NCBI GenBank assembly: GCA_963709585.1
Contig: CAVPXI010000007.1
Coordinates: forward strand, 384,001 to 448,000
DNA from: Candidatus Dormiibacterota bacterium
GTDB lineage: Bacteria > Chloroflexota > Dormibacteria > Aeolococcales > Aeolococcaceae
Direction of reading: 5' to 3'
Length of the DNA stretch: 64,000 bases
The first letter of the stretch is position 1. Each line of letters begins with the position of its first letter. Made by a program: the position numbers and the translations under genes. Shown one piece after another: positions 17,901 through 33,425 of this stretch. Below the pieces are notes generated by a model. That model ran no database searches, was not told where the DNA came from, and was given only the letters and a program-made list of their open reading frames with translations.

Positions 17901-19719
17901 ATGGCAGCTGAGCGTTTCGCGCCGCCCCGTTCCAGGGTGAACGACTTCGCGTTGAAGCTCGCCAACGTCAACGGCACCGGGTCGTCGAGCGCCAACAACC
18001 TGCTGATGCGCGCGATCTTCCGGATGGGCGTGCCCGTCTCGGGCAAGAACCTGTTCCCGTCCAACATCCAGGGCCTGCCGACATGGTACGAGATCCGCGT
18101 CAACAAGGACGGGCACGTCGCCCGCGCCCGCGAGTACGACCTCATGGTGGCGATGAACGGGCAGACCTACGCACGCGACATCGCCGAGGTGGCAAGCGGC
18201 GGTTTCACGATGTACGACTCGTCGTGGCCGCTCGACCGTGACCTCATCCGCGAGGACGTGACCTACCTCGGGGTGCCGCTCGCGGAGATGTGCAACGACG
18301 AGTTCCGCGGACCACGCGAGCGCATCCTGATGAAGAACATCGCCTGCGCCGGGGCGCTCGTGGCCATGCTCGGCATCGATATGGAGGTGATCGCGCAACT
18401 GCTCACCGAGCAGTTCGCCGGTAAGGACCGGCTGCGCGAGTCCAATCAGCGCGCGCTCCGGCTCGGCCACGATTTCGCGACATCGCACTTCGACCACCCG
18501 CTGCCATGCCACATCGAGGCGATGGACGCGACCGAGGGCTCGATCCTCATCGACGGCAACACCGCGGCGGCGCTCGGCTGCGTCTACGCGGGCGCCACGG
18601 TCGCGGCCTGGTACCCGATCACGCCGTCGACGTCGCTCATGGACGCATTTGCGAAGTACTGCGCCAAGTTCCGGCGCGACCCCGAGACCGGGCGCAACAA
18701 CTACCTGGTACTGCAGGCCGAGGACGAGCTGGCCGCGATCGGCATGGTGCTTGGCGCATCGTGGGCGGGAGCGCGCGCGTTCACGTCGACGTCGGGCCCG
18801 GGCATCTCGTTGATGCAGGAGCTGCTCGGCATGGGCTATTACGCGGAGATTCCGGCGGTGGTGTTCGACGTCCAGCGGGTCGGCCCGTCGACGGGGATGC
18901 CCACTCGCGTGCAGCAGTCGGACATTCTGGCCTGCGCGTATGCGTCGCACGGCGACACCAAGCACGTGCTCCTGTTCCCGGCACATCCGGCCGAGTGCTT
19001 CGCGATGGCGGCGAATGCCTTCGACCTCGCGGAGCGTTTCCAGACTCCGGTGTTCGTGCTCTCCGACCTCGACATCGGCATGAACGACTGGGTGAGCCCC
19101 GCGCTGGAGTGGGACGACTCCTACGTTCCCGATCGCGGCCGCGTCCTCGATGCGGGCGAGCTGCGCGAGCTCGAGGTGTATCACCGCTACGAGCCGGCCG
19201 ACGCCGAGTTCGGTTGCGGCGCGCACGCTCCCGGGCGTGAGCGAGCTGGGTGCGTTTTTCACGCGCGGGTCGGGCCACACCATCGAGGGCGCGTACACCG
19301 AGTATCCCGAGGAGTACCAGGCGGTTCTCGACCGTCTCGCGCGCAAGCACACCGCATCCGCGGAGCACATTCCCCTTCCACTCGTGGACGACCACGCCCA
19401 CGCGTCACTCGGCATCGTCACCCTTGGCAGCTGTGAGCTGGCGGTCCTGGAGGCGGTCGAACTGCTCGCCAAACGCGAGATCGCCGCCGACTACATGCGC
19501 GTCCGCGGCTTCCCCTTCGGCGCCGGGGTGCGCGCCTTCCTCGACGCCCACGAGACGATCGTGGTCGTCGAGCAGAACCGTGACGGCCAGTTGCGCACGC
19601 TGCTCACCCTCGAGACGCCGGTGTCGAAGGAGAAGCTGCGCTCCGTGCTCGCCTACGGCGGGTATCCGTTGAGTGCCGAGGACGTCGTCGACGGCGTCAC
19701 CAAGATCCTGGAGGCCTGA
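17901..19719 (+). CDS. korA: 2-oxoacid:ferredoxin oxidoreductase alpha subunit; apparent +1 frameshift at 19206-19211
   Basis: FPSNIQGLPTW, AWYPITPSTS, QAEDELAAIG, TSGPGISLM, QRVGPSTGMPTR; VVEQNRDGQL in the second frame. Confidence 0.92.
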
Positions 19720-19721
19720 CC

Positions 19722-20771
19722 GTGCCATCGATCGTCAAGCCGCAGGTGACACACCCGGGCCTCGAGCGCAATGCGCTGGGGCTGAGCATCCGCGACTACG
19801 AAGGCGGGATGTCGACGCTGTGCGCGGGATGCGGACACGACTCGGTCACCGCGGCGATCACCCACGCGTTGTGGGAGAGCGATACGCCGCCACACATGAT
19901 CGCCAAGCTGAGCGGCATCGGCTGCTCGGCGAAGACCGCCGCGTACTTCGCGCGTGGCGCGCACGGGTTCAACGGCTGTCACGGACGCATGCCACCGATC
20001 GCAACCGGAGCGAGCGCCGCGAACCGCGACCTGCTCTGCATCGGAATCTCCGGTGACGGTGATTCACTGTCGATCGGGCTCGGCCACCTCGCGCACCTCG
20101 TGCGGCGCAACGTGCGCATGGTCTACGTCATCGAGAACAACGGCGTGTACGGGCTCACCAAGGGCCAGTTCTCGGCGTCGGCGGATGTTGGCTCGACCAC
20201 CAAGCGCGGCGAGGCCAATCACCTCCAGCCGATCGATCCGATCTTTCTCGGGCTGTCGGTGGGCGCGACCTTCCTCGCGCGCGGCTTCTCCGGCGACAAG
20301 CGTCAGTTGGTCCCGATCTTCCGCGCAGCGATGGCACATCGGGGGCTGTCGATCATCGACGTGATCTCGCCGTGCGTCACCTTCAACGACCACGAAGGTT
20401 CAACCAAGAGCTATCTCTTCACACGCCAGCACGACGTGCAGATGACGGTGACCGACTTCGTGCCACCCGCAGAGGAAATCTCCGCGACCATTCCCGACCA
20501 GGGCGTCGTGAGCATCCCGATGCACGACGGAGCAACGCTGCGCTTCCGGAGCGTTCCGGACGGCTACGACCCGACGGACCGGATGGCGGTGATGGAGCAC
20601 CTGATGTCGGCGCGTGGCCGTGGCGAAATTGTGACCGGTCTTCTGTACATCGACGAGCAGTCGTCGGACCTGCACGAGCTTGGCAACACCACAGATCTGC
20701 CGCTCACGCAGGTGCCGTACGAGAAGCTCTGCCCGGGCTCGGCGGCCTTGGCGGGCGTGGGTTTCCGCTAG
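19722..20771 (+). CDS. korB: 2-oxoacid:ferredoxin oxidoreductase beta subunit
   Basis: STLCAGCGH, SGIGCS, HGR, SGDGD, ENNGVYGLTKGQFS, ISPCVTFN. Confidence 0.93.
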   Translation: MPSIVKPQVTHPGLERNALGLSIRDYEGGMSTLCAGCGHDSVTAAITHALWESDTPPHMIAKLSGIGCSAKTAAYFARGAHGFNGCHGRMPPIATGASAANRDLLCIGISGDGDSLSIGLGHLAHLVRRNVRMVYVIENNGVYGLTKGQFSASADVGSTTKRGEANHLQPIDPIFLGLSVGATFLARGFSGDKRQLVPIFRAAMAHRGLSIIDVISPCVTFNDHEGSTKSYLFTRQHDVQMTVTDFVPPAEEISATIPDQGVVSIPMHDGATLRFRSVPDGYDPTDRMAVMEHLMSARGRGEIVTGLLYIDEQSSDLHELGNTTDLPLTQVPYEKLCPGSAALAGVGFR

Positions 20772-21068
20772 CCCGTTGATGGGCGATCCCACGTGGCCAT
20801 TTCATCCTTGAGGTTGATGGCCGAGCGACAGGACGCTGGCCTGTGCCGGACCAACCTCACTGGCTCCTGGCAGCATATCGTCCCAACGACATCTGAGCAC
20901 TTCGTGCAAGTCGTCGTTCGTCAGGTTTACGAGGCGGCCCGGTGAAGTGCTGAGGGCTTGATGTCTCCAGAGAGCATCCTGCGGCGAGGCAGCGTCTGAT
21001 ACTGTCGCGGGCGCCGATCGGAGATCGTCCGCACGGCCCTGCACGTCGCAACCACGCGGGAGCACCAC

Positions 21069-21674
21069 ATGCCAGACACCACTTGTCACATGTCGATCTC
21101 GCTTGACGGCTTCGTCGCCGGGCCAGACCAGAGCTTGGACAACCCGCTGGGGAAGCGGGGCCAGGAGTTGCACGGTTGGCACATCGGCGACCCGCGGGCG
21201 ACTGAGGCCGACAGGGTCGCGACCGAGTGGCTCATGCGCCCCCGTGGCGCGTATGTGATGGGGCGGAACATGTTCGGCCCGATCCGCGGGGACTGGGACG
21301 AGGAATGGACCGGCTGGTGGGGTCCGGAACCGCCGTATCACGCGCCGGTGTTCGTGCTGACCCATCACGATCGCGAGCCCATCCGGATGGACGGGGGGAC
21401 CACCTTCCACTTTGTCACCGAAGGGTTCGACGCGGCCTATTCCGCGGCATGTGAGACCGCCGGGGAAGCCGGCGTGGACATCGCTGGCGGGGCTTCGACC
21501 GTCCGGCAGGCGCTAGTAGCTGGGGTGATCGACGAGTTGACCCTCGACATCGCGCCTGTTCTGCTCGGTTCGGGCGAGCGCATCTTCGACGGGATCGAGT
21601 ATTTCGGCTTCGAGCCTGCCGAGGTCTTGCACTCGCCGCTGACCACCCACATCCGCTACCGCCGCATCCACTGA
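21069..21674 (+). CDS. Dihydrofolate reductase family (RibD C-terminal) protein
   Basis: MSISLDGFVAGP, MGRNMF, PVFVLTHH, IAGGASTVRQ, IDELTLDIAPVLLGSG. Confidence 0.88.
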   Translation: MPDTTCHMSISLDGFVAGPDQSLDNPLGKRGQELHGWHIGDPRATEADRVATEWLMRPRGAYVMGRNMFGPIRGDWDEEWTGWWGPEPPYHAPVFVLTHHDREPIRMDGGTTFHFVTEGFDAAYSAACETAGEAGVDIAGGASTVRQALVAGVIDELTLDIAPVLLGSGERIFDGIEYFGFEPAEVLHSPLTTHIRYRRIH

Positions 21675-21809
21675 CATGCGGCCGCGCTCCCTAACTCAGC
21701 AGCGCGATCAGTTGCCCGATTGATGGCGATCGTAAACCTACGCCGGCTAGAGCCGCAACGCATCCGCCCCTTCCGTCTGAAGTACCGTGACCTCGGCCCG
21801 TCCAAGCCG

Positions 21810-21837
21810 TCACGAGACATTGACGGATACTCGCCTG
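21810..21837 (+). repeat. 28-bp dispersed direct repeat, copy 1 (candidate recombination site)
   Basis: TCACGAGACAT-TGACGG-ATACTCGCCTG. Confidence 0.75.
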
Positions 21838-21931
21838 TGCAGGGAATGCCTTGCTTAGGTGGGTTGCCGGCCAGCCAGGACACGCCACCCCCGCGTGCGC
21901 TGCGCCTGTATCGGTTACCGTGTCGAGTGCG

Positions 21932-22663
21932 ATGCGCGCGGCGCTGATCGACGTTGGGGGGACCCTCTGGTCAGAGGGCACGGGCGGCGTCCAGCCCAGG
22001 GGCCACCACAGCGGCAGCAACCCCGTGGAGCGTCACGGCGTCGAATGGGAAGCCCGACTGTCGCAAGCTGATGTTCCCACGGACCGCGTCAGCGTCCTCC
22101 GTGAGAACCTTAGCCCCCTGGTCCAAATGGCGGTGGAGAACGCCGAGTACTTTGACATCTGGGCGGCGATCAGGGAGGCTTCCGCGATTGCCGGGCTGGC
22201 CAACATTGATGCTGAACGCATTCGCGCCGCCAGCTGCCTCCCAGCCTCCAGCTTCACAGCACCCTTCGTTGGAGCTCTCGATCTACTGACCGCACTACAT
22301 CACCATGACATCCGAGTCGTGCTCATATGCAATGCAATCTGGCGCACGAGCGACGACTACTGGAGCGACTTTCGGTCGTTCCGCCTGAGTGATCAGATCG
22401 ACGCCATCCTGTCGTCTGTCGACCTCAGGTCGCGAAAGCCCAGCCGAGCCTTCTTCGAGGCGGCACTTCAAGAAGCGGCGGCGCCGCCCATGGACTGTGT
22501 GGTCATTGCGAATTCCGAAGTCAGCGACATTGAGCCAGCCAAGGCGCTCGGGATGCGCGCCATTCGCGTTGCGATCGACGAGCCGCCGCCCCCAGCAACC
22601 AACGCCGACTACGTCTGTACGTCGCTCACCGAGGTAGAAACTGTCCTACATAAAGCCTGCTGA
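21932..22663 (+). CDS. HAD-superfamily hydrolase
   Basis: ALIDVGGTLW motif I, ICNA, RKPSRAFF, ANSEVSDIEPAKALGM. Confidence 0.8.
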   Translation: MRAALIDVGGTLWSEGTGGVQPRGHHSGSNPVERHGVEWEARLSQADVPTDRVSVLRENLSPLVQMAVENAEYFDIWAAIREASAIAGLANIDAERIRAASCLPASSFTAPFVGALDLLTALHHHDIRVVLICNAIWRTSDDYWSDFRSFRLSDQIDAILSSVDLRSRKPSRAFFEAALQEAAAPPMDCVVIANSEVSDIEPAKALGMRAIRVAIDEPPPPATNADYVCTSLTEVETVLHKAC

Positions 22664-22698
22664 CGGCCGCTGCCGAGGACCTTGTTCACTGCGTGCTT

Positions 22699-22725
22699 TC
22701 TGGGTACATTCTCCGCTCTCGGCTC
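22699..22725 (+). repeat. Degenerate copy of the 28-bp repeat
   Basis: TCTGGGTACAT-TCTCCG-CTCTCGGCTC; left arm 9/11 to consensus; about 35 bp after the HAD stop. Confidence 0.45.
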
Positions 22726-22903
22726 GAACGCGCCAGAGCGTACGGCGGGAGCGTCCAGAAGCTCGCAGGGACCCCACACGAATCGATTTCCAGCCGCCGA
22801 AGCGGGTCGGTCGATAGATCGCCCGTCCTCGAAGGCCTCAGCCTGGATAGACGCTCTGTTTTTCGCCAGCGTAAGTCATGACTGAGGACGAGGAAACCGA
22901 GGC

Positions 22904-22972
22904 GCTACCATCGCAGCTGGCGTCAGCGATCACGTCGTCTGGAAGATCGACGAGATCGTCACCCTCCGGGAC
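22904..22972 (+). pseudogene. Remnant of the C-terminus of an IS1-like DDE transposase
   Basis: Translates as ATIAAGVSDHVVWKIDEIVTL, resembling the TPAMAAGxxDHVWxxEEIV tail of IS1-related transposases; no upstream ORF. Confidence 0.5.
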
Positions 22973-22998
22973 TTCGCACCCTCGCTAACCTGGGAGCC

Positions 22999-23136
22999 GT
23001 GGACGACCGAGGAATCCGAGCTGCAAGACGGCGCGTCATCGTCCTCACTGTGGTCGCTGCTGTCCTGGGTCTCCCGCTCGTTTGGCTGCTGCTGGGCCTG
23101 TTTCACGGCATTGATTTCGGTTCGGCTGGCTTCTAG
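22999..23136 (+). CDS. 45-aa single-TM microprotein
   Basis: GGGAG RBS + GTG; MDDRGIRAARRRVIVLTVVAAVLGLPLVWLLLGLFHGIDFGSAGF (basic N-terminus then hydrophobic helix). Confidence 0.5.
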   Translation: MDDRGIRAARRRVIVLTVVAAVLGLPLVWLLLGLFHGIDFGSAGF

Positions 23137-23139
23137 CGC

Positions 23140-23277
23140 ATGAAGATCGGATCGCGCCGCGGTTGGGTGGTCGCGTTCGCCGTCGTCCTGGCGGGTATCG
23201 CCGCGGTCTATGTTGCGATGGACCTCGTGCTTACGGCGATCTCATGCGCTAGCGCCTCTGCGTGCGGCGGCGGATAG
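23140..23277 (+). CDS. 45-aa single-TM microprotein
   Basis: Starts 3 nt after the previous stop; MKIGSRRGWVVAFAVVLAGIAAVYVAMDLVLTAISCASASACGGG. Confidence 0.5.
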   Translation: MKIGSRRGWVVAFAVVLAGIAAVYVAMDLVLTAISCASASACGGG

Positions 23278-23639
23278 CCCCAAACGGCCACAGCACGGTC
23301 CGCCCCGGGTCGAGCAGAAGGAAGGAACGAGGGACAGACCGGAGCCTCATTCGGTCCGCCCTCACACATTGGAGCAGAGGAGTTGAGGAACACGAGCCGT
23401 GCTCAAGGCGGCGGCTCGCGTCCTCGCTCACGGAGGGGCTACGCCGCGTACTGGAATGAACCCGGCCGAATCTTGGCGAGCCAGTGGTTTGTCGCGATGT
23501 GGGTGCGACCTTCGAGAACGTGCACCGTCTTGTGGGTGTCCGGGTCCACGGCATCGAAGGTCTCGCGAGCGACGACGAGACCTCGGCCCCGATAGCCGTT
23601 GTGCGCGGTGGCGACCGTGTTGATTAGACGGCCCGGCGC

Positions 23640-23667
23640 TCAAGGTACATTTATGGACGCTGGCCTG
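23640..23667 (+). repeat. 28-bp dispersed direct repeat, copy 2
   Basis: TCAAGGTACAT-TTATGG-ACGCTGGCCTG. Confidence 0.9.
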
Positions 23668-23777
23668 GACCGATGTCCATTCGCCGGACTCGTGCTAAGA
23701 ACCCATGAGATCAGATCGTTGCTACGTAGTGTCGTGGCAGGCAGCCTCGCTCCATGAGATTAGGGCAGGATCGGAAC

Positions 23778-24089
23778 ATGGCCAAGGCTGGTGGACCCGA
23801 CAAAGACCGTGGTGGCAAGGTATCGCCGGACGGGTTGTTCATGTGGAACGGTACTGTCTGGCAGCGTTGCGGCGCGGTTCCGGTGAACACGCTAACCAAT
23901 GGGGGGTTCTATTTCGACGGCACCACTTGGATGGCCGTGCCTTCGCCTCCGTCGCCAGTGGCCCCTAGGCATCGTTTTGGACATTTCTCGCCGAGCTGGT
24001 GGTTCATTCCATTGGTGACCGTGGGCGTATTCGTGTTCACCGTCGCCGCGCTCATTCTCTTTGCTCTGTTGAGCCACGCGCACACCTAG
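23778..24089 (+). CDS. Hypothetical membrane protein with two xxDGxxxWxGxxW-like repeats and a C-terminal TM
   Basis: GCAGGA RBS; SPDGLFMWNGTVW / NGGFYFDGTTW; hydrophobic C-terminus. Confidence 0.65.
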   Translation: MAKAGGPDKDRGGKVSPDGLFMWNGTVWQRCGAVPVNTLTNGGFYFDGTTWMAVPSPPSPVAPRHRFGHFSPSWWFIPLVTVGVFVFTVAALILFALLSHAHT

Positions 24090-24156
24090 AGACCACTGTG
24101 GTCAGCCCGGGCTACGGCCGGTCGCCGACCCCGTGCCTGACGCGTGAACCGAAATC

Positions 24157-24184
24157 TCAAGGTACATTCGCGGATGCTGGCCTG
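24157..24184 (+). repeat. 28-bp dispersed direct repeat, copy 3
   Basis: TCAAGGTACAT-TCGCGG-ATGCTGGCCTG. Confidence 0.92.
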
Positions 24185-24429
24185 CACGAGGGTGCTCGAG
24201 GCTGAACCTTGACTAAGGTGGTGCAGGACGTTGATGGCGTTCGAATACAGGTCGTAGCCGCGGAACCGTCGACTTCTTGAGGTCGTGGAGGTCACCAGGT
24301 CCATCGAGCAGCCACATAAGCGAGGCCGACAGTCCCGCCCCAAAGCCCCCAACCAGAGCTACTCGCTCTAGGACAACCCGCGGTAAGGCTGGGTGGTGTT
24401 GGGCCAGCGCGTTCAGGAGGCTGAGGGCT

Positions 24430-24960
24430 CTAGCAGCTCCATGTGCCCACGATGTGGAGGAGTGGGGTCGTCGCCCTGAGCGCTGCGAGGTTCGCATCCA
24501 CTGAACCGTGAATGGTTCCAGTGGTGGTCTTCGAGAGGGTAATAGTGCCGCTACTCATGGGGCTATCTTGTCCTGCGGCCCAAGTTTCGGAGTTAGCGGC
24601 AAAGATCGCAACAGATCCCGGAGGTCCCGGCGACTGCAGTTCGCCTGCCAGGGGGAGCTTGAACGTCCCCACTCCGCCAAGAAATTTGAGCGCGACGTCC
24701 GTCGATCCAGCGCTGAAGTCAACCGTACCGGTGAGTTCCAGGTCGGCAGGTGGTGGCGATGCCAGCCCGGTAGATATGTCGACGATGGAACAACCGGTGC
24801 CGGCCTTCTGCGTGCCAGCGGTCACCGTACGGGTTATGGCTCCGGAAAGCGTCAGTGAACCCTGCGCAACTCTCGCTGCCGGGGTTGCCGATCCACAACT
24901 TGTCCCCACGAGAAGGGACGCGAGGACGACGCCCGTTCGTACTGCTCGGATCAGGCCCAT
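24430..24960 (-). CDS. Putative lipoprotein, beta-rich
   Basis: Signal peptide ending LLVGTSC-G; G/S/T-rich; ends HIVGTWSC. Confidence 0.7.
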   Translation of the reverse strand: MGLIRAVRTGVVLASLLVGTSCGSATPAARVAQGSLTLSGAITRTVTAGTQKAGTGCSIVDISTGLASPPPADLELTGTVDFSAGSTDVALKFLGGVGTFKLPLAGELQSPGPPGSVAIFAANSETWAAGQDSPMSSGTITLSKTTTGTIHGSVDANLAALRATTPLLHIVGTWSC

Positions 24961-25038
24961 TTCAACACCAGCATACGAAGATCATCCAGGGGCGACAACG
25001 ACAGCGACACATGAGTCGCCGGGTCCGACCGGAACAGC

Positions 25039-25066
25039 TCAAGGGACATTGGCGTGTACTGGCCTG
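25039..25066 (+). repeat. 28-bp dispersed direct repeat, copy 4
   Basis: TCAAGGGACAT-TGGCGT-GTACTGGCCTG. Confidence 0.85.
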
Positions 25067-25226
25067 AGCCACGCACCCATGCCTAGATCGGGTCGGACGA
25101 CCTGCTAGCCCGGGCCTCTCCCGCGCCTGAAGATCGTCGCCATCGGTTCGCCGCCCTTACTCTCCCCGGCATTGCACCCCTTGTCGCGGGACACGGCATC
25201 GCCGAAGCTTTCATCGCATGGTTCGG

Positions 25227-25689
25227 CTACTTCAAGAGGTGCACGAGTGTCGTCTCAGTGGCGACTGGATCCGGCGTCGGATCTCCGTAGATCTCCCAGG
25301 AGAGCCCAGCTCGACTCCCTCCGGTTCGCGGCCATCCATTTATCGATCGCGTTGTATGCCTCGTTCATGCGGTTGTACGGCCCGCGGTGGACGGCTACGG
25401 CAGCTTCCCCTCCTGGTGCTTCGGTCGCGTAGACCTCGCCCACGGTCTCAAATGTGCGCGTGACTTCGACGCCGAAGTCGCACACGATCGGCGCGCCCGG
25501 CTGCTTCGAATCCTGGTAGAGGAATATGTTGTGGCCGTCAGTCCACAGCCCCGGCTGACTGCGAATGAAGTCCCAGACCTTGCCCAGCGCTGGCCCCCAC
25601 GCCGAGCCAATCTCGTCCGGCGCAACCTCGCGACGCACGGCGGCCAACTTGCGGGGCTGAACAGTCTGTACGTCGACTGAGACCAGCAT
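25227..25689 (-). CDS. GyrI-like small-molecule binding protein; apparent +1 frameshift near 25311
   Basis: PRKLAAVRREV, TDGHNIFLY, CDFGVEV, AVHRGPYNRM; correcting one base beside GACTC gives SWEIYGDPTPDP...LVHLLK-stop. Confidence 0.8.
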
Positions 25690-25759
25690 TCCACGATCGT
25701 AAACAAGCCGAGGCGGATAAGGAGCTCTCACCGTCGACACCGGACTGACCCCCGGTCAC

Positions 25760-25787
25760 TCAAGGTACATTCCCGGACGCTGGCCTG
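25760..25787 (+). repeat. 28-bp dispersed direct repeat, copy 5
   Basis: TCAAGGTACAT-TCCCGG-ACGCTGGCCTG. Confidence 0.92.
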
Positions 25788-26345
25788 GTCTGCCGAGGTC
25801 ACGCTCGGGACTGGCGCTGGGATCGCGTCGCCGCATCCGTGTGAACTCGATCTTCTCGCGAACCAACACCGTCAGCGACTCCCCGCAAAAGAGCGATGCA
25901 TCCGAGCTGGTCGGGATCAGAGGTCAGCCATTGGCGGCGTTGCGCTGGATCGTGGACGGAATCAGCGGGTCCGGTAACTGGGGTCCACGGAGTTCCACCA
26001 CTGGGCCGCCTGCGTCGTGTCGCCGGCGGTAGCGGGAGTCCGATACCTCACCGAGAATGATGATGGCAAGCACTAACCCGATCGCGCTCGCGACGACAAG
26101 CATGCCTAGCCTCCAGCATCCTGCTTACAGATCGGTCGTCCTATACCCCAGCACACCATAGGGTCATCCTCCGCCGTTTCTGTCGCGCATGCAAGCAGAA
26201 GCGAATCGAGCACCCAGGAGGATCAGCTGACATGCCGACTTCGTAGCTCGTGATCGTGAGCTGCGTCGAGGCGCTGAGTATCCGAACGGCGAGGCGGCGA
26301 GGAGAGTAAGTGTTGAGCTTTCGGGCCGAACGGTCTATCTCCCCC

Positions 26346-26373
26346 TCAAGGTACATTGGCGGATACTCGCCTG
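26346..26373 (+). repeat. 28-bp dispersed direct repeat, copy 6
   Basis: TCAAGGTACAT-TGGCGG-ATACTCGCCTG. Confidence 0.9.
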
Positions 26374-26422
26374 CACGACCTTTATCTCACCGCATGCGGG
26401 CCCCAGCACGAGGCGGGGCCAC

Positions 26423-26833
26423 CTACGGCTCCGTGATCTGGAGACTCACGGTGACGGTGGCTCCGTTGTTGACCGTCACGGTGGCGCTATAACGACCCGG
26501 TTCCTCCTGCTGCGGCGCGGAGACAGTGTAGGTTCCGGGCGACAGGTCGAATTCAAAGACGCCGCTGGCGTTCGTCGTTGCCGTGCCGGCCACCGTTCCA
26601 TCGGGACGCGTTGCGGTGATGGCCGCGTTCTTCTCCACTTGGAAATAGCCGGAGGGGCACGGAGACCGTCCCATGCAGGTGGGAACGGGTCCGGCGGTGA
26701 GGGTGAAGGTTCCGTGGATGTGGCCCTCAGCCGTAGGTCCGGTCGACGGCGGACTCGCAGTCGAGGATACCGAGCTGGCGCACCCGGTGACCGCTATTGC
26801 TATGACGGCGAGACTCAGCCGTAGGCGTTGCAC
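26423..26833 (-). CDS. Lipoprotein with carboxypeptidase-regulatory-like (transthyretin-like beta-sandwich) domain
   Basis: Lipobox AVTGC; TATTNASGVFEFDLSPGTYTVSA motif. Confidence 0.75.
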   Translation of the reverse strand: MQRLRLSLAVIAIAVTGCASSVSSTASPPSTGPTAEGHIHGTFTLTAGPVPTCMGRSPCPSGYFQVEKNAAITATRPDGTVAGTATTNASGVFEFDLSPGTYTVSAPQQEEPGRYSATVTVNNGATVTVSLQITEP

Positions 26834-26930
26834 TCAATAACTCCCTGACACGGCCCGAACGGGGATCTTGCCCAGGCGGCAATGGAAGCAGCCCAGGTTA
26901 TTCGGCTTAGGTCCGGGCGCAAAGCTTAGC

Positions 26931-26958
26931 TCTGGCGACATTAGCGACTGCTCGCCTG
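26931..26958 (+). repeat. 28-bp dispersed direct repeat, copy 7
   Basis: TCTGGCGACAT-TAGCGA-CTGCTCGCCTG. Confidence 0.7.
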
Positions 26959-26999
26959 AGCCTCCCTCTTTGTGCCTGATGCGCGGACCGACCAACGGG

Positions 27000-27236
27000 C
27001 TAAAGCGGCGTTCCCCTTTGCGCCCACCCGGGTCCGTCGGTAGTGACCGAAACCTTCACGCCAAGCAGGCTCATGAGAGCTCGAGTGGCTCGCTCTTCGT
27101 CCATGTTTGCGGCCGCGTGTGTGGCCACGATGAATACCCACTCGTCCTCCCCGTCATGCAGCCAGCGGACCGGTCCGGACACACCATTCTCGATCAGCAG
27201 CGCGCGAGCAGTTGCGAGAAGATCGGATTGAGCCAT
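27000..27236 (-). CDS. Small hypothetical protein (78 aa)
   Basis: Fills the interval between two repeats; TATTCT -10-like box 7 nt upstream of ATG; the LMSLLGVKVSV segment loosely recalls minimal nucleotidyltransferases. Confidence 0.55.
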   Translation of the reverse strand: MAQSDLLATARALLIENGVSGPVRWLHDGEDEWVFIVATHAAANMDEERATRALMSLLGVKVSVTTDGPGWAQRGTPL

Positions 27237-27271
27237 CCGGGACAGAATACGCACTCCCACCTAAACGATCC

Positions 27272-27299
27272 TCGAGGTACATTCCCGGATGCTGGCCTG
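27272..27299 (+). repeat. 28-bp dispersed direct repeat, copy 8
   Basis: TCGAGGTACAT-TCCCGG-ATGCTGGCCTG. Confidence 0.9.
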
Positions 27300-27335
27300 G
27301 CTCAGGGCTCCAGTCTCCGGACGCCGGAGTGCAGC

Positions 27336-28082
27336 TCAGTTACTCGAGGGCAGCAACGACCAGCAGAGGGGTTCGCCATCTGTGCCGACCGGCGGAGCCC
27401 CGGCGTCGCTAGCGGAGACGTTGGTGGGCGGACCTGATGCCGGAGGCACGATGACTACCTCCGTTCCGCCTGAGGGTGCCGGTCCGATCGCTGACGCCGG
27501 CCGAACGTATGGTGGCATCGAGCGGAGATAGCCTTGGAGATCTGTAGCTGGCACCATGACAACATCCACTGAGGCGTACTGGGTGGCCACTCCGCCTGCC
27601 GCGGCTGAGACGAATTTCCCGTGCAAATCGACAACGTACCAATGACCGATCGCTCCCGACGGACCGGAGAAGGTCCCGCAATCAGCGGGGTTACCGGTCT
27701 GCCAGGCATTGGAGATCGCGTCCCAGAACTCTTGATCGGTGACGTACTTCACCTCCACGGAGTCGACGCGCTGCACAATTTCCGGGTCGTGTTGAAACAG
27801 CGCTTGAAGCGCGGCTTCGACGAGTGGCGGCTCTGTTGGCAGAGAGGCCAGACGCACGCTGCTGGTCGGATTGGTCGGCGCTGACCGCCCAACCGCGAAT
27901 CCCGTCCCGGCGCTCGCGGCAAGAGCGAAGACGATGACCGCAACCACGGCGGCGGAGCGGCGCCCGCGGGGACGCTTGACTCGACTGGGCTCAGGCTGAG
28001 ACTCGCCTATGTCCTGCGCCGCATGTTGGAGGAGCCTGCGTATGCGAGCCTCCTCGATTTCGATGGTTCCTTGATCGTCCAT
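27336..28082 (-). CDS. Putative single-TM anti-sigma factor
   Basis: Directly downstream of an ECF sigma; short cytoplasmic N-terminus (EARIRRLL), TM (AAVVAVIVFALAASAG), extracytoplasmic domain. Confidence 0.65.
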   Translation of the reverse strand: MDDQGTIEIEEARIRRLLQHAAQDIGESQPEPSRVKRPRGRRSAAVVAVIVFALAASAGTGFAVGRSAPTNPTSSVRLASLPTEPPLVEAALQALFQHDPEIVQRVDSVEVKYVTDQEFWDAISNAWQTGNPADCGTFSGPSGAIGHWYVVDLHGKFVSAAAGGVATQYASVDVVMVPATDLQGYLRSMPPYVRPASAIGPAPSGGTEVVIVPPASGPPTNVSASDAGAPPVGTDGEPLCWSLLPSSN

Positions 28083-28093
28083 TTCACGCTCTC

Positions 28094-28642
28094 CTAACTT
28101 GCGTCGATGAGGGAACGGAGCCGGCGGCGTCCCTCCCGTAATTGGTTCTCCACAGTCTTTGGCGTACAGCCGAGCGCCTCCGCGACCGACGCCGTGCTCT
28201 GGTCTTCGAGGTAGGCGAGCACAACGCACATCCGCATTCGCGGCGGCAGTCGCTTTAGTGCGCGGACGATGTCGAGCGTCTCAGCACGCCCCTCAGGCTC
28301 AGCCGAGCTCGCCGCCAAGAGGCGGAGTCGGTCGATCTGCATTCGCATCCGCCGGCGCTGCCGCGTGGCGAGGCGAATCGCGACCATCCGGAGCCAGGGC
28401 CACGCCGGGGTACGCAGGTATCCGGGGTGCTCCCTTTCCTGCCGAAGCGCCTCGACGAAGACGGACTGACAGAGATCTTCGCCGGTACTGAGATCGCCGG
28501 TGATCAGCGTTGCAAATGCCCGGAGCCGCCTCCACTCGTCGGCGTAGATCTCCCGGATTCGCTCGCCCGGCTCCATCAATACCTCTAGCGGCGGCTGCTC
28601 TTCAGGGGAGCTGATCGGCAACCGCTCGTGCATGAACGTCAT
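28094..28642 (-). CDS. ECF-type RNA polymerase sigma factor
   Basis: Region 2 (GEDLCQSVF...WLRMVAIR) and region 4 (LKRLPPRMRMCVVLAYLED...VAEALGCTPKTVENQL). Confidence 0.88.
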   Translation of the reverse strand: MTFMHERLPISSPEEQPPLEVLMEPGERIREIYADEWRRLRAFATLITGDLSTGEDLCQSVFVEALRQEREHPGYLRTPAWPWLRMVAIRLATRQRRRMRMQIDRLRLLAASSAEPEGRAETLDIVRALKRLPPRMRMCVVLAYLEDQSTASVAEALGCTPKTVENQLREGRRRLRSLIDAS

Positions 28643-28897
28643 GTTCTCTTCTATGCACGGGCGACGCGAAAACCCCTAGAGACACGCAGTTCGACTTCGT
28701 AGTCCGCCACCTAGACCTCCTGTCGTCATGCGAGAGAGAGTGCGCTGAATCGCCACCGCCTGACCTCTGGCGTGGTTACGTCAGGGAGCATGGACGCGGA
28801 CGGTCATCGACCGAATCGGCTCGCCGATTGGGGTCCAGGTGATTGACAACTCAGCGCCGAGCATCATCTAGTCCAGAGGCAGGCTGAACCGAGTTCC

Positions 28898-28925
28898 TCT
28901 AGTGACATTTGCGGATGCTCGCCTG
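28898..28925 (+). repeat. 28-bp dispersed direct repeat, copy 9
   Basis: TCTAGTGACAT-TTGCGG-ATGCTCGCCTG. Confidence 0.8.
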
Positions 28926-28974
28926 AGCGAGGGTCGCCTTCACATGCACGGGGCCGTGCGGCAATACTGCCCTC

Positions 28975-29535
28975 ATGCGGATGCGCCACCTGAGGGTTCG
29001 GGGATTCACGGCTTTCGCCCTTATCCTGACCTTCGCCGGGTGCACGTCGGCGCCTCGGCCATCTCCGACGCCTAGCGCCCCGGTCCCGGCGAGCATTCAA
29101 GCGAACGGCATCGTCGCTCCGTGTCTTCCTGGTGACGTGAGCCTCACCACGACGGCGAAGCCGGTCGCCCCGCCAAGGACAACCGGAGTAGTGATCACCA
29201 CCACCTTGCTCAACCGAAGGGACTTCGCTTGCGCGCTTGCTATGCTGATATGCCCGCATGGTGATCTTTATGCGGAGGTGGTCAATGCGGTCGGCGCCAT
29301 TGTGTGGTCGCCGGGGTACGCCGTCGGCTGTCCACCGCAGCCCCGTCTAGCGGCGGACATCGTCGCACCGCATTCGTCCGTCAAAGTGACCCAGGTGTGG
29401 GGCGACACGTATTGCGGGCCGGCCTACGGCTGCGGGCCTTCGACAAAGGCCGCCGCGCCCGGGATGTACCGTGCTCGAGGAATCTCCGACACTGTCGGCG
29501 TCGGCAGCCAGAGTGCACCCTTCACCGTTCCATGA
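28975..29535 (+). CDS. Putative Cys-rich lipoprotein
   Basis: Lipobox TFAGC; Pro/Ser linker; several Cys; PGMYRARG...SAPFTV C-terminus. Confidence 0.7.
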   Translation: MRMRHLRVRGFTAFALILTFAGCTSAPRPSPTPSAPVPASIQANGIVAPCLPGDVSLTTTAKPVAPPRTTGVVITTTLLNRRDFACALAMLICPHGDLYAEVVNAVGAIVWSPGYAVGCPPQPRLAADIVAPHSSVKVTQVWGDTYCGPAYGCGPSTKAAAPGMYRARGISDTVGVGSQSAPFTVP

Positions 29536-29565
29536 ACCTGGAGGCCGTATTTAGCTTGTCGCGCG

Positions 29566-30198
29566 CTACCCAGCTGCGCCCTGATACTCGAAATCAGTGG
29601 CGAAGCCGCAGCGCTCGTGCAGATCCCAAAGAAGTGGCGGGTCATTCACCCGCAGCTCGTCGGCGACCACCTCCTGGCCCGGTCGATCCAATCCAGGGAT
29701 GCCACAAGCGACCGGCGCGGACGCCTCCACCGGAACTGTCGCCGACACACTGACGAACGTGGCGGCCCTGATGAACCATCGCCGAGGAACATGCGACAAG
29801 CGAATTCGAGCACGACGAACGTCGTGCACGATGCCGATGGCTCGAGCGAAGTTTTCCAGCGCTGTGCCTCCCGCCCGGCCGAGGAAGATCGAAGTCAGCG
29901 AACCGTACTGCGCGTCGCTGGCATCGTCGCCGATGTACAGGCTGACCCGCCAAGGCGAGCTCGGTTCATCGTCGTCGTACCAGCCGGCCAGGACGACGTC
30001 AAGATCGCTGAGGATGACGTCGTCCGCCCGGCCCTCGTTGATGTGCCAGGAAAGGGCGAACTGACAGATGCCGTGCGTCGAGCGACCGCCTGGGCGATCG
30101 CCGACGGTGCGACACGGGCAGATGGCGTCGCAGTTGCACGCTTCGAAGTAGCTGCCGCTCAGGTGCCATGAAGTCGGCGGCAATGACAAGGAGCTCAC
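29566..30198 (-). CDS. DUF1326 family protein
   Basis: WHLSGSYFEACNCDAICPC, HINEG, IFLGRAGG. Confidence 0.82.
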   Translation of the reverse strand: MSSLSLPPTSWHLSGSYFEACNCDAICPCRTVGDRPGGRSTHGICQFALSWHINEGRADDVILSDLDVVLAGWYDDDEPSSPWRVSLYIGDDASDAQYGSLTSIFLGRAGGTALENFARAIGIVHDVRRARIRLSHVPRRWFIRAATFVSVSATVPVEASAPVACGIPGLDRPGQEVVADELRVNDPPLLWDLHERCGFATDFEYQGAAG

Positions 30199-31424
30199 GT
30201 CGCCTGCCTTCGCGACACCATGTGCTCCGCCAACACGGCGGCGTCCTCGGCGACGCCAAAGAGCGTGGCTGATTTCCGTTTGCGCTGAAAGTGAACGCCC
30301 ATGAAGTGAAGCCCGGAAACGATCGTGCTCGAGCCGTCGACCTGGATGGGGAATCCGCTTTCGTCGAACGCGTTGGGCGCTGCGACCCAGCTTGTGTAGT
30401 CGGGTCGGAACCCGGTCGTAAAGATCACCGCGCCAAGGCGGGCCAGGTCAAGGCTCTCGGGCGGGTTGGCCTCAAACGCCTGGGGGTCCGGCATCGCCAG
30501 CGCCGGCACGGAACGGGCTTCGCAGTTAGCCGCGATGAGATCTCGGACGTCGGCGTAGCGAGCATCGCCAAACGCTACTGATGCGTGGAGGTCGCGGGCG
30601 AAGTGGACGCGCCCGTCCTCGACGCCCGCGAATCGCCCGACGAGTTCGACCCCGAGCGCCTGGAGCGTCCGATAGTTGAGATCGCGCCCGCCTCCATGGC
30701 CCGTAAATTGCGGGTTCGAGAGGAACCGAGCGCTCGGACTGGGCAACTCGTCGAGGCGAGTCTCGTAGAAGTCGCTGTCGAGAATCCAGCTCAGGACGTC
30801 ACGACCCTCGATTCGGCGAGGCACCCACGGAGCGCGGCCGCACGCGAGGTATACGTTTCGTCCGGCCTCGAAACACTCTTCGGCGAGTTGGCAGCCGGTC
30901 TGTCCGCTGCCGACGACCAAGACATCCCCTCCTGGGAGCGCGCCCGGGTTGGTATAACCCTCCACATCGATCGTCAGGACCGAATCCACCGGCATCTCAT
31001 GTGCCGCGGCCGGCCGGTAGGCGCGCTGATACCCCCCAGAAGCCAGCACCACCTCACGGGCTCGGATCTCGACGTTCGACGTCCGAAGCGTGAACGTGCC
31101 GTCTTCGCGTGGTTCGATCGCCGTCACCTCCACGCCTGCTCGGATGGGTGCGCTGAAGCTCCGAGCGTAGCGATTTAGGTATTTGACAATCTCATCCTTC
31201 GGCATGAACCCATCAGGGTCATCACCGTCGTAGCGCGAACCCGGAAGGTGGACGGTCCAGTTGGGGACCACCAAACGGAAGCTGTCCCACCTACGCTGCC
31301 AGGACTCGCCTATGGACCCGCGTTCGAGTACGACGTGCTCAATCGCGGCATGCGTCAGCTCGTGGCTCAGAGACAGGCCAGCCTGGCCCGCACCGACGAT
31401 CGCCACATCCACTGCTTCAACCAT
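30195..31424 (-). CDS. Flavin-dependent oxidoreductase (FMO/CzcO-like)
   Basis: IVGAGQAGL, RWDSFRL, VGSGQTGCQLAEE, IFTTGFRPD, TLFGVAEDA. Confidence 0.85.
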   Translation of the reverse strand: MVEAVDVAIVGAGQAGLSLSHELTHAAIEHVVLERGSIGESWQRRWDSFRLVVPNWTVHLPGSRYDGDDPDGFMPKDEIVKYLNRYARSFSAPIRAGVEVTAIEPREDGTFTLRTSNVEIRAREVVLASGGYQRAYRPAAAHEMPVDSVLTIDVEGYTNPGALPGGDVLVVGSGQTGCQLAEECFEAGRNVYLACGRAPWVPRRIEGRDVLSWILDSDFYETRLDELPSPSARFLSNPQFTGHGGGRDLNYRTLQALGVELVGRFAGVEDGRVHFARDLHASVAFGDARYADVRDLIAANCEARSVPALAMPDPQAFEANPPESLDLARLGAVIFTTGFRPDYTSWVAAPNAFDESGFPIQVDGSSTIVSGLHFMGVHFQRKRKSATLFGVAEDAAVLAEHMVSRRQAT

Positions 31425-31587
31425 TGGTCTCCCGCACGCGAAGAGTTTGCCTCGTCGACACGAGGCGCGGTCGGCGTTGTAGTCCCTCAACGATACTGAG
31501 GTTCGCCTCCCGCTCCCACTCCCACGGCCCGCCGAATCGGGTCAGGCTCACCCTCCGCCACCTAATGCGAAATCGAGTGCGCCACGA

Positions 31588-32292
31588 TCATGCGTGGAAG
31601 GCAAAGGTCTGTACGAACTGATCCACCTGCGCCGCTGTTGCCGTCTTTGCCCCGGCGACTCCACCAACTATCGCGAGGATGTAGTACGTCCGACCGCCCG
31701 CAGCGACGTCGTATTCCACTTGGAGTGATCCGGACCCCATCCCCTCAGTCTGATCTCCCGAGAGTCGCGTGCTACTGACGCCATTCACGTCGACTGTCGT
31801 CATTTGCACGTTGCTGTATAGAGATCTGTTTGTCGATATGAGTGAGATGCCTGCAGGCGGAGCCGTCCCGGCGACGGATTCAACGAAGATCCCGATCTGA
31901 CCGTCTCCTAGGGGACAACTCGTGTAGAGCCCACCCGAATCGATCAAGAGCCAACTCGCGCTCACATTGTCGCAATACACCTTCCAGCTTGGAGGCAGGT
32001 CGAAGGTAACCTTCTGAATGGCACTCGTGTACGAGGTCCACCCAACGGGAAGGCTCGAGGTGGCGGACGGGCTCGAGGTGGCGGACGGGCTCGAGGTGGC
32101 GGACGGGCTCGAGGTGGCGGACGGGCTCGAGGTGGCGGACGGGCTCGGCGTATCCGAGGGACTGAACATTGTGGCCGGCGCCTGTGACGGTACCGGCGAT
32201 GCCGATGAGCCAGTGGTTCCGCACGCTGCCAAGGAGCCGATTAGAGGGATCGCAAGGCAGCCAGCAATTCGTGAAGAGACTGCGGGTGTCAA
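31588..32292 (-). CDS. Lipoprotein with tandem (PSATSS) linker and PsbP/DcrB-like domain
   Basis: Lipobox LAAC; WTSYTS...TFDLPPSW; ends VDQFVQTFAF. Confidence 0.72.
   Translation of the reverse strand: MTPAVSSRIAGCLAIPLIGSLAACGTTGSSASPVPSQAPATMFSPSDTPSPSATSSPSATSSPSATSSPSATSSPSATSSLPVGWTSYTSAIQKVTFDLPPSWKVYCDNVSASWLLIDSGGLYTSCPLGDGQIGIFVESVAGTAPPAGISLISTNRSLYSNVQMTTVDVNGVSSTRLSGDQTEGMGSGSLQVEYDVAAGGRTYYILAIVGGVAGAKTATAAQVDQFVQTFAFHA
32052..32141. repeat. Perfect 18-bp tandem repeat x5 (coding VNTR)
   Basis: GGCTCGAGGTGGCGGACG x5, encoding PSATSS x5 on the minus strand. Confidence 0.95.
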
Positions 32293-32378
32293 TAGCGTCC
32301 CTCCCTTTTTGGGACGAGGCCACGTTAGCTCAGGGTTAACGGGTCCAGCGAATGCGGGTTACTAAACCTCCCGGCGAT

Positions 32379-33425
32379 CTACTTACCTCGCTTGAGCATT
32401 GCCCGGATACCGGCGAGAGTTCGGCGCTTGACCACGAGCAATCTCTCCTCCAGGTTGCTCACCTCCATTCGCACCAGGCGCGATTGAGCAGCCAACGGTC
32501 GCGGATGTTCACTCTGCATTCGAGTCCGCGCGATCCTCATCGACTCGAGCTGGGTTTGTCGTATCGACTCTCTACCAGAGGCGGCATCAAGCAAGCGCAG
32601 GCTCACATAGAACTCAAAGTTATTGGGTTGGGTGGGCACGAACGCTGCAACCTCGTAGTCAATGAGTCCCAGCCGAGCCAGCTTCTCGACGAGGCCAAGG
32701 AAGGAGTCTGGTGTGAACACATGGCAATGCACGTCGACGAATTCATCGCTGATCTGCATGTGCCGGCAAGCGTCTAAAGCCGCGACGTCCGGGTCATCAA
32801 AATCCTCACGAACAGCGAGGCTGTAGTCTGCCGTACCAGCCCACACCGCGGCGGTGTCCACGGTGCCGCCGATCGCCTTTGAGTAGAAGTCATAGGCTTG
32901 CCGGAAACTGGGTTGACGTAGCCCGCGCAAGTTGGCGTCGACGAGGTCGCTTACTTCAGTAAGCGATCGGTTGATGTCGAAGCAATACCGCTTGTCAGGG
33001 ATGATCAGCGATAGGATGCCGCCGGGTCGCAAGACATGGGTGAGGTCTTCCAGCCAACCGACAGGGTCGGGGATATGTTCGATGACGTGCGCAGCAATGA
33101 CATAGTCAAATGGCGCGTCGCTTGCAACAGCTTCGGCGATCGTCGTTGTCGCTCCGAGTACATAGTCAACTTCCACGATCTCGTCCAATCGATCTCGCAT
33201 CCCCTGGTTCGTCCCATACTTCTGCCGGAGTTCGGCCGCGCTGGCGTGGTCGACATACCGCACGGGACCCTCGTCCTTGCGCACTCTCGGGGAAGCGAGC
33301 GGCCCAATCTCCAGCCCGCGCATGTGGACAACGTCGACAGCAGCCAATTCAGGCCGCAGTTGGACTGGATTGCCTTGCACCTGAGTTCCGCTCATGGTCA
33401 TGGAGCGGAGCCTGGGCCGAGGCAT
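32379..33425 (-). CDS. Class I SAM-dependent methyltransferase domain protein
   Basis: GLEIGPL, YVDH, FDYVIAAHVIEHIPDP, LRPGGILSLIIPDKRYCFD. Confidence 0.82.
   Translation of the reverse strand: MPRPRLRSMTMSGTQVQGNPVQLRPELAAVDVVHMRGLEIGPLASPRVRKDEGPVRYVDHASAAELRQKYGTNQGMRDRLDEIVEVDYVLGATTTIAEAVASDAPFDYVIAAHVIEHIPDPVGWLEDLTHVLRPGGILSLIIPDKRYCFDINRSLTEVSDLVDANLRGLRQPSFRQAYDFYSKAIGGTVDTAAVWAGTADYSLAVREDFDDPDVAALDACRHMQISDEFVDVHCHVFTPDSFLGLVEKLARLGLIDYEVAAFVPTQPNNFEFYVSLRLLDAASGRESIRQTQLESMRIARTRMQSEHPRPLAAQSRLVRMEVSNLEERLLVVKRRTLAGIRAMLKRGK

Follow-up and report, generated by a model that had tools for sequence, protein, structure and literature searches.

A probable orphan array of small mobile gene cassettes with joints resembling large serine recombinase attachment sites in a Candidatus Dormibacterota genome

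A 64,000-nucleotide stretch of a Candidatus Dormibacterota genome, here called the window (G000:C7:384001-448000, from an assembly of 3.52 Mb in 24 contigs that is 88.8% complete), carries a run of small genes separated by short, co-oriented repeats. The run is read, with fair confidence, as an orphan array of nine or ten small mobile gene cassettes whose joints are putative attachment (att) sites of a large serine recombinase (LSR). A broader proposal is held less firmly, though still on balance: that an LSR has built a second, independently evolved "integron", with arrays of up to ~30 single-gene cassettes, attR-type joints, an attB-type head and a 2.5-3 kb LSR element that delivers variable cassette runs, genus-wide in Candidatus Dormibacterota; other LSR clades may run parallel systems. 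An earlier note on the window had described the repeats as 28-bp sites of Xer/dif-like geometry (two 11-bp arms around a 6-bp spacer) that delimit single-gene modules and are recombined by a tyrosine recombinase encoded elsewhere. The gene-capture part of that account is borne out below; the proposed type of site and of enzyme is not.

All nine intergenic copies of the repeat listed in the earlier note are present, on the + strand. Its 28-bp pattern, at up to three mismatches, matches the window at eight positions (21810, 23640, 24157, 25039, 25760, 26346, 27272 and 28898), all on that strand, and matches none of 100 dinucleotide shuffles (chance expectation 0). The ninth copy, at 26931, was recovered by repeat search and with a position weight matrix (PWM; 33 bits). 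Spacing from joint to joint is 341-1830 bp. A supposed degenerate tenth copy at 22699 stands in part: the left arm TCTGGGTACATT is retained, the remainder is decayed and the full PWM score is below 2 bits. Since the left arm alone was kept there, two cassettes have probably fused at this decayed joint. The motif was said to be missing from the housekeeping flanks, and it is: the PWM scan found no further copies in the flanks of the window, the sole additional match being one of 14.5 bits at 39503 on the - strand. The entire assembly, in whose searched sequence 8 kb (C23:56001-64000) are N, holds 14 PWM matches of at least 20 bits, comprising the nine of the window array, three at C15:157583-159013 and single sites at C8:83876 and C23:157076. 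The motif is therefore clustered and not evenly scattered, as the earlier note had expected of a genome-wide scan.

The motif is widespread in the genus. At up to two mismatches it occurs in 22 of 24 genomes of the same genus and in none of 16 from the sister family (the sister-family counts of motif, Xer-like gene and serine recombinases include genomes G027, G032 and G036), and a reversed-pattern control gave no match in any genome scanned. Public contigs matching the motif are metagenome-assembled genomes of Candidatus Dormibacterota from soil and peat; isolated matches in unrelated taxa fall within the chance range that we estimate by our own arithmetic (~70 in 596 Gb). Some arrays are large: 29 sites lie within the first 20 kb of G016:C12, G004 has 37 sites, and the single 3.34-Mb contig of G019 has ~35, ~30 of them at 134.5-168.3 kb. 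Within arrays the sites are strictly co-oriented, independent of gene orientation. Arrays are found after the PFOR genes, between relA and hisS, in tRNA-linked islands and in an element resembling an integrative and conjugative element (ICE). At the PFOR locus, arrays were found in 4 of 17 genomes examined (G000, G008, G016 and G002); G015 has a variant head site only, and the others have no site.

The inter-site units are individually mobile. The 199 units of a first set, cut from 17 array stretches, are between 63 and 5745 bp long (median near 600 bp). A heuristic based on G+C content at third codon positions (GC3) assigned one open reading frame (ORF) to 140 of the 199 units and none to 18, with 141 ORFs directed against the sites and 125 with them. 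All-against-all blastn of the units gave 22 full-length homologous pairs, and in 13 of the 14 for which both neighbours could be evaluated the neighbours differ on both sides. The sites thus bound mobile single-gene modules, as had been supposed, and comparison of relatives revealed differing gene content with breakpoints inside the site. Cassettes of the window recur in the same manner. The sigma-factor unit is found at 92.5% identity in G003:C2 with another upstream neighbour, and G008 and G043 carry it too. Copies of the CarboxypepD_reg unit with 82-93% identity are present in G004, G010, G011 and, at three places, G016; those of the GyrI-like unit (83-89%) are in G021, G008 and G002. A soil-metagenome contig (run X4) that is ~96% identical to the sigma-factor cassette tracks the window as far as 28925, which is position 28 of the last joint, and continues with 49 unlike nucleotides; a related strain therefore has another downstream neighbour at this joint. 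Among 150 ORFs from other arrays are GNAT acetyltransferases, glyoxalases, HAD hydrolases, DinB/MST and SnoaL proteins, extracytoplasmic function (ECF) sigma factors and polymorphic-toxin immunity families, together with many that have no Pfam match.

Judged from its conservation, the functional site is predicted to be ~49 bp long, not 28 bp, and to have the half-site architecture of an LSR. In the information profile of 215 sites, conservation sets in sharply at position 1, is strong as far as position 28 and continues, weaker and position-specific, up to position 49, an extension that was overlooked in the earlier note. The outer arms (positions 1-10 and 40-49) are complementary about axis 25 at 4.25 of 10 positions, as against 2.2-2.7 about five other axes. 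The inner motif (16-26) mirrors positions 29-39 best about centre 27.5, at 4.72 of 11 positions versus 2.6-3.6 at other full-length centres. Measured from the centre, the right outer arm is therefore 5 bp nearer than the left one. The left half, of attP type, consists of the outer arm TCnnGnnACA (1-10), a 5-nt spacer TTnnC and the inner motif GGAyrCTsGCC (16-26). It is followed by a nearly invariant TG at 27-28 (T in 203 and G in 206 of the 215 sites), the candidate crossover dinucleotide, and by a degenerate attB-type right half (29-49) in which the mirrored inner motif is joined directly to the mirrored outer arm. According to the passages on the structure of serine-integrase sites in PMC3783163, attB has its zinc-ribbon-domain motif 5 bp closer to the central dinucleotide than attP does, and the minimal attB is ~10 bp shorter. 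Since the offset in the joints equals this half-site difference, as those passages give it, the internal joints look like P-TG-B' hybrids, that is, attR-type sites. No hairpin potential was found when 80 of 214 sites were folded as DNA (mean z +0.32 and +0.30 versus shuffles), and no base pair recurs in the folds of more than 27 of the 214 sites. A search for long-range covariation found none, the top mutual-information pairs all being neighbouring positions, and Rfam gave no match at E<=0.1 in window positions 20000-30000.

Crossover is confined to positions 22-29. Variable site positions were traced along with the cassette held in common in a segregation set of 328 sites, 268 units and 22 pairs of at least 85% identity, the pairs being few and partly non-independent. 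In the site 3' of a cassette, positions 1-22 travel with the cassette (position 3 in 19 of 21 cases, 13 in 17, 14 in 19, 15 in 15, 19 in 20, 20 in 16 and 22 in 20), positions 3-22 tracking the upstream unit in 71-100% of the 21 cases; positions from 29 onward are at background (position 29, for example, in 5/21). In the 5' site the cassette is not tracked at positions 3 (2/10), 13 (2/10), 14 (4/10) and 20 (1/10), and it is tracked from position 29 onward (position 29, 10/10). The crossover therefore falls within 22-29. This excludes the 6-bp "spacer" at 12-17 as the region of exchange and argues against homologous recombination spread over the repeat.

The head of the array differs from its joints. 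The PFOR beta subunit gene (19722-20771, +; Pfam TPP_enzyme_C and PFO_beta_C) is the last conserved chromosomal gene before the array; at its end (window ~20770-20776) synteny breaks off in the comparison with each of the 30 other genus genomes searched. Fifty nucleotides past its stop codon lies a spacer-less variant of the site (20821-20843, +), overlooked before, in which the outer arm is fused to the inner motif with no 5-nt spacer and is followed by TG. With 28.4 bits it is the only match of at least 20 bits to the spacer-less PWM in the entire 3.52-Mb assembly. It is the true, attB-type head of the array. Beyond it, the unit with the RibD_C-domain gene (21069-21674), at ~20832-21841, is found at other loci in at least ten genus genomes with 89-98% identity, 98% at G008:C1:25509-26412. 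Given this head and this recurrence, the RibD_C gene is itself a cassette, which the earlier note had also missed. Spacer-less head variants follow PFOR in G008, G015, G016 and G002 as well. The PWM for the spacer-less form was run on 60 arrays. In 15 of them such sites lie ahead of the first canonical site, at a distance of no more than 3 kb; among the 44 arrays whose upstream sequence extends for 3 kb or longer, the count is 10. Downstream of the last site there are none in any of the 60, including the 49 with enough sequence (at least 3 kb). Inside arrays two spacer-less sites were seen, and both are followed by more canonical sites. By the logic of LSRs, the chromosomal B half stays at the head and never at the tail, and this predicted polarity is what the 60 arrays display.

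LSR elements of a particular kind sit at array heads in relatives. Seven LSR loci of the genus are at least 50% identical to the G006 enzyme (in G006, G021, G051, G057 twice, G010 and, as a pseudogene, G003), and in all seven the left arm of the site abuts the LSR start codon; among 18 more distant LSR loci the start-adjacent match to the site was strong in none and weak in one. Read in the polarity of the TG, the G006-type loci present a spacer-less B-type half, TG, a P'-type half and the LSR gene, so that the start-adjacent site looks attL-like. A canonical joint in the same polarity follows 2.5-3 kb past it (attR), and then further cassettes; in G021 and G051 the far end of the element is the canonical attP-type half. 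Ten metagenome contigs with the P' end of the element have, by eye, a spacer-less upstream half followed by TG, which scores at least 16 bits with the spacer-less PWM in six of the ten. Co-oriented canonical sites lie 2.5-3.0 kb downstream in six of the seven contigs with enough sequence, and the seventh keeps only 54 LSR codons. The enzyme looks intact from its sequence: it has the Resolvase, Recombinase and Zn_ribbon_recom domains, and its N-terminal domain aligns to the catalytic domain of TP901-1 integrase, R-x-S motif included. Its partner is an ORF with matches to REP_ORF2-G2P and phrog_3419 (rolling-circle replication initiation); of 14 full-length copies of the 2.5-3 kb element, eight encode this rolling-circle Rep. 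Other LSR clades, with 43-47% identity to the G006 enzyme, were seen at L253, L254 (G019), L268, L269 and L283. Their start-adjacent sequences are different but related, sharing a CAT(A)TTAGC-like core, and each clade may have its own attachment-site family.

A mechanism can be proposed in which the circular LSR element (attP) integrates into an attB-type head site. Excision between attL and any downstream attR would then remove the element together with 0 to n adjacent cassettes, and the circle could be replicated by Rep and insert into a different head of that genome or of another one. If the bare element were then excised, its passenger cassettes would stay behind a restored attB-type head. 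Arrays would in this way grow at the head, have their cassettes reshuffled and outlast the loss of their driver, as may have happened in G000. Single cassettes might alternatively move by direct attR x attR exchange. That the LSR catalyses this movement is suggested by comparative evidence, on which the identification of the driver is based.

A number of findings weigh against this scheme. No homologue of the LSR or of Rep was found in the window's assembly (tblastn, E<=1e-5), whose only PF00239 match is a short resolvase-type ORF of 177-196 aa on C4; the earlier note had placed the recombinase outside the window, and lack of such an LSR in the assembly makes the array an orphan. Serine recombinases of any kind occur in only 15 of 24 genus genomes and were not found in the array-rich G004, G008, G014, G020 and G002. 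The LSR clade of the site type is present in only 6 of 41 other genus genomes, and G019, with its large arrays, has distant LSRs only, next to other start-adjacent sequences. A recognisable attB-type head is seen in only a quarter of arrays, and the right half of canonical sites is weakly conserved (~0.3-0.9 bit per position). Positions 23 and 26 follow the upstream cassette in 14/21 and 11/21 cases (background 0.52 and 0.59) and the downstream cassette in 8/10 each, while a strict crossover at 27-28 would predict tighter tracking of both. None of the ten metagenome contigs has the free attP form. No excision joints were found over 19500-30500 in the contigs of four soil runs, and in contigs the absence of circles or deletions is uninformative; for most loose contig ends at site edges in these runs, matches to other arrays offer an explanation. 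No directionality factor was identified, LSR rules leave the first acquisition of an attP-type half at a gene end unexplained, and the gene calls come from our own GC3-based heuristic.

Some of these difficulties would vanish if the LSR-Rep element were a mere parasite of head sites, as IS110 elements are of the left arm, and if the cassettes were moved by some other trans-acting recombinase. Arrays are present in most genomes despite the rarity of the site-type LSR, the IS110 elements demonstrate that array sites do draw site-specific parasites, and the ambiguous segregation of positions 23 and 26 points the same way. We consider this rather unlikely, because the far end of the LSR element is itself a canonical cassette joint, the internal joints have the same attP-type half-site geometry as the element, 5-bp offset included, and attB-type sites at heads only are what LSR logic predicts. 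Nor does any other recombinase family track the arrays: tyrosine integrases near them adjoin tRNA genes, and IS110 is present in 16 of 31 genomes. The Xer/dif-like reading, or more widely one of tyrosine-recombinase sites served by an enzyme encoded elsewhere, is less probable again, although one Xer-like recombinase is common to all 41 genomes, the sister family included, and, in a version with a 6-bp overlap at 23-28, the mixed segregation of 23 and 26 would fit a heteroduplex overlap centred near the outer-arm axis 25. The central region proposed for an 11-6-11 site (12-17) travels with the upstream cassette (positions 13-15 in 15-19 of 21 cases), the dyad claimed between the two 11-bp arms comes down to CAT/ATG, and a loose scan of the assembly yielded no convincing canonical dif-like core. 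The Xer-like gene is equally present in the 16 motif-free sister-family genomes; none of seven full-length tyrosine recombinases of G000 reaches the NCBIfam cut-off for Xer or integron integrases, the universal Xer-like protein scoring 179 bits against an Xer cut-off of 335, and three that were tested have patchy, multi-copy relatives adjoining tRNA genes. No tyrosine recombinase is consistently linked to the arrays, and neither the spacer-less head sites nor the 5-bp half-site offset would be explained by one.

Transposases of the IS110 family (bridge-RNA type) might move the cassettes as non-autonomous elements. Their genes lie in or beside arrays of G003, G010 (2 copies) and G016, and three independent copies are inserted at the identical point of the site, between positions 9 and 10, in the same orientation. 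That point is at variance with the cassette crossover at 22-29, the copies interrupt sites and do not bound cassettes, and PF01548 occurs in only 16 of 31 genus genomes, being not found in the array-rich G004, G008, G014 and G020; the idea is disfavoured as very improbable. Little more can be said for a regulatory or REP-like intergenic repeat with reassortment by homologous recombination. The copies lie between genes, and a length of 28 bp is close to the minimum for RecA-dependent exchange; this reading nevertheless appears slightly less credible still, as crossovers are not spread over the 28 bp, co-orientation within arrays is strict whatever the gene orientation, and site-specific elements (LSR and IS110) use the sites. 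Hardly any weight is given to a divergent integron with IntI acting on attC-like sites. Such a system would account for arrays of mostly single-gene cassettes and for a weak Cass2 match of one cassette protein, and GNAT, glyoxalase and immunity proteins along with many proteins of unknown function are typical chromosomal-integron cassette content. The best TIGR02249 match in the whole assembly reaches 40.5 bits against a cut-off of 265, however, and the sampled sites have no hairpin potential, the ORFs show no orientation bias (141 vs 125), and crossover is mid-site and not at one end.

Among described systems, the nearest to the proposed LSR-built arrays are tandem LSR islands and, by outcome, integrons. 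In Dehalococcoides ssrA-linked genomic islands (ssrA-GIs), with DsiB, a CcrB homologue, and in composite islands of the staphylococcal cassette chromosome (SCC), an LSR integrates at one site and repeated integration leaves tandem units between direct repeats; a unit that has no recombinase gene of its own is presumed to be mobilised in cis together with the unit next to it, through accretion, as the passages on such islands in PMC3146451 describe. Tandem units between direct att repeats, some without a recombinase, are thus common to both. As far as those passages go, the islands differ from the present arrays, in which units are of cassette size, measuring ~60 bp to 5.7 kb (median ~600 bp) and mostly holding a single gene, and a single array can have 29 or more. 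Loci are several here and include other mobile elements instead of one essential single-copy gene, and the place of a multi-gene integration module is taken by a putative driver of 2.5-3 kb, an LSR element that usually encodes a rolling-circle Rep as well. The SCC details of this comparison are in part general knowledge.

Integrons are matched in the small, mostly single-gene cassettes that reassort between arrays and genomes and, in the proposed model, in growth at the recombinase-proximal head. Orphan arrays lacking a recombinase were reportedly found by Cury et al. in 2016 to be common among integrons (clusters of attC sites lacking integron-integrases, or CALINs), and the orphan arrays here, common as well, are their counterpart. 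In contrast to integrons, the recombinase would be a serine and not a tyrosine (IntI) enzyme, encoded in a mobile mini-element and not in a fixed platform; the sites are double-strand, sequence-defined and 49 bp long, form no hairpins and cross over in the middle; and the ORFs face either way without bias, which makes a single upstream promoter unlikely. The site logic resembles that of the A118/LI, phiC31 and Bxb1 integrases, which in the relevant passages of PMC3783163 includes a ~50-bp site with inner and outer half-site motifs, an outer motif 5 bp closer in the B-type half, hybrid attL and attR at element ends and an integrase gene abutting its own P' half. What sets the present arrays apart is that dozens of attR-type hybrids stand in tandem and bound passenger genes. 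Like pdif modules, or integrative mobile elements exploiting Xer (IMEX), the arrays are made up of small gene modules set off by short sites, and their recombinase is encoded elsewhere; unlike them, they lack dyad 11-bp arms, cross over outside the proposed 6-bp centre and have co-oriented sites, pdif sites alternating in orientation. No description of these arrays, of Dormibacterota cassettes or of an LSR-based cassette array was found by the literature searches made.

If the LSR proposal is correct, cassette-scale gene capture is not unique to integron integrases, and a serine integrase with strict attP/attB logic reaches it by accretion and variable excision. The arrays would be a new model for small adaptive gene trade (acetyltransferases, glyoxalases, immunity proteins, sigma factors) among uncultured soil bacteria. 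For genome engineering, two further things would be of interest: dozens of natural, orthogonal-looking attR variants that a single integrase family recognises, and an integrating replicon reduced to 2.5-3 kb. Systems of this kind escape tools that look for arrays by attC or IntI.

The window array can be described unit by unit, all joints being on the + strand. Cassette 1 holds the RibD_C-domain gene (+; Pfam) and ends at joint 1 (21810-21858; pattern, PWM and anatomy), of apparent attR type with a 28-bp strong part and a 21-bp weak mirror half. The HAD-family hydrolase gene of cassette 2 (21851-22663, +; Pfam) is followed by the decayed joint (22699-22726; left arm by sequence, PWM under threshold) and by joint 2 (23640-23688; pattern, PWM and anatomy). 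Cassette 3 encodes a 111-aa protein without Pfam match (23754-24089, +; from the ORF list) and ends at joint 3 (24157-24205), which has no mismatch to the 28-bp pattern. The genes of the cassettes beyond it are on the - strand. Cassette 4 has a listed ORF of 176 aa, again with no Pfam match (24430-24960), ahead of joint 4 (25039-25087; pattern and PWM); cassette 5, a Pfam-assigned GyrI-like small-molecule-binding protein (25255-25740), ahead of joint 5 (25760-25808; pattern); and cassette 6, a called 59-aa ORF with no Pfam match (25924-26103), ahead of joint 6 (26346-26394; pattern). A 136-aa CarboxypepD_reg-domain lipoprotein (26423-26833; Pfam) makes up cassette 7 and precedes joint 7 (26931-26979), the weakest full copy. 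Cassette 8, with a listed 86-aa ORF lacking a Pfam match (27000-27260), is followed by joint 8 (27272-27320; pattern). Cassette 9 (27336-28642) comprises an ECF sigma factor (28094-28642; Pfam Sigma70_r2/r4) and an adjacent 297-aa ORF (27336-28229) of no Pfam family that is a candidate anti-sigma factor judged by position alone, and the last joint lies at 28898-28946 (pattern). Pfam thus agrees with the gene content read earlier from the letters (HAD, GyrI-like, CarboxypepD_reg lipoprotein and ECF sigma), adds RibD_C, and leaves several ORFs without a family. G+C in window 21000-33000 is 0.61-0.65 versus 0.66-0.72 in the flanks, and array ORFs also have lower GC3; both are consistent with a separate gene pool. 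In soil run X2, two contigs break at 28728/28732, upstream of the sigma-factor gene and away from any joint, and may reflect an insertion or rearrangement in a related strain.

Several observations concern the surroundings of arrays and the recombinases near them. A fixed intI-type platform was sought and rejected, as the flanks of 11 arrays are heterogeneous (a tRNA-Gly-linked integrase, an AP2-domain protein, IS110); flanks of further arrays and lone sites hold a TrwC/ICE-like element, other integrases and another LSR clade. The ~400-aa tRNA-linked integrases were likewise dismissed as the cassette recombinase. Their identity between genomes is patchy, 4 of 8 inspected copies have small arrays within 1.2-4 kb and 6 of 8 adjoin a tRNA gene, none having been found in the L219 and L224 loci; they are read as belonging to islands that carry arrays. 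At L219, L220, L221 and L028 (G020 and G003), arrays of 2-4 sites lie 1.2-4 kb from such integrases, three of the four integrases adjoining tRNA genes (Tyr, Met, Thr), and these small arrays appear to be cargo of tRNA-linked islands. A long open frame (G000:C11:81693-83585, L212) has the universal Xer-like recombinase as its C-terminal ~350 aa; the part upstream reads through TGA stops in other genomes and so is probably a separate gene. Tyrosine-recombinase fragments are present at G000 C23:65866-66734, beside the 8 kb of N on that contig. The GC skew of ~1% is too weak to place the terminus, and the lone C8 and C23 sites lie off the skew switches.

The IS110-family element (357 aa, ~1.34 kb) is a site-specific parasite of cassette joints, three of which contain it: the units at 6334 and 8749 of L023 (G010:C13) and L017:8487-9560 (G016:C7). 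IS1111/IS110 elements are also known to target integron attC sites. Insertion at one fixed position and orientation is common to both cases, the target here being an LSR-type site. The relA-hisS interval is a second hotspot, with the lone G000 site at C23:157076 (L033) and a nine-site array preceded by IS110 in G003:C2 (L025). The other lone site of G000, C8:83876, stands beside a HAD cassette within an element that has a TrwC relaxase, a DpnII-type restriction enzyme and a tyrosine integrase (L032:11875-14817, L032:16730-17761). Synteny of this site with the G019 array was considered and discarded, the common stretch being only 91 bp (C8:91912-92002) and mapping to the tRNA-Gly gene of the G019 locus. 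That stretch lies beside the tyrosine integrase, and the element as a whole suggests that conjugative or mobilisable elements ferry cassette sites between hosts.

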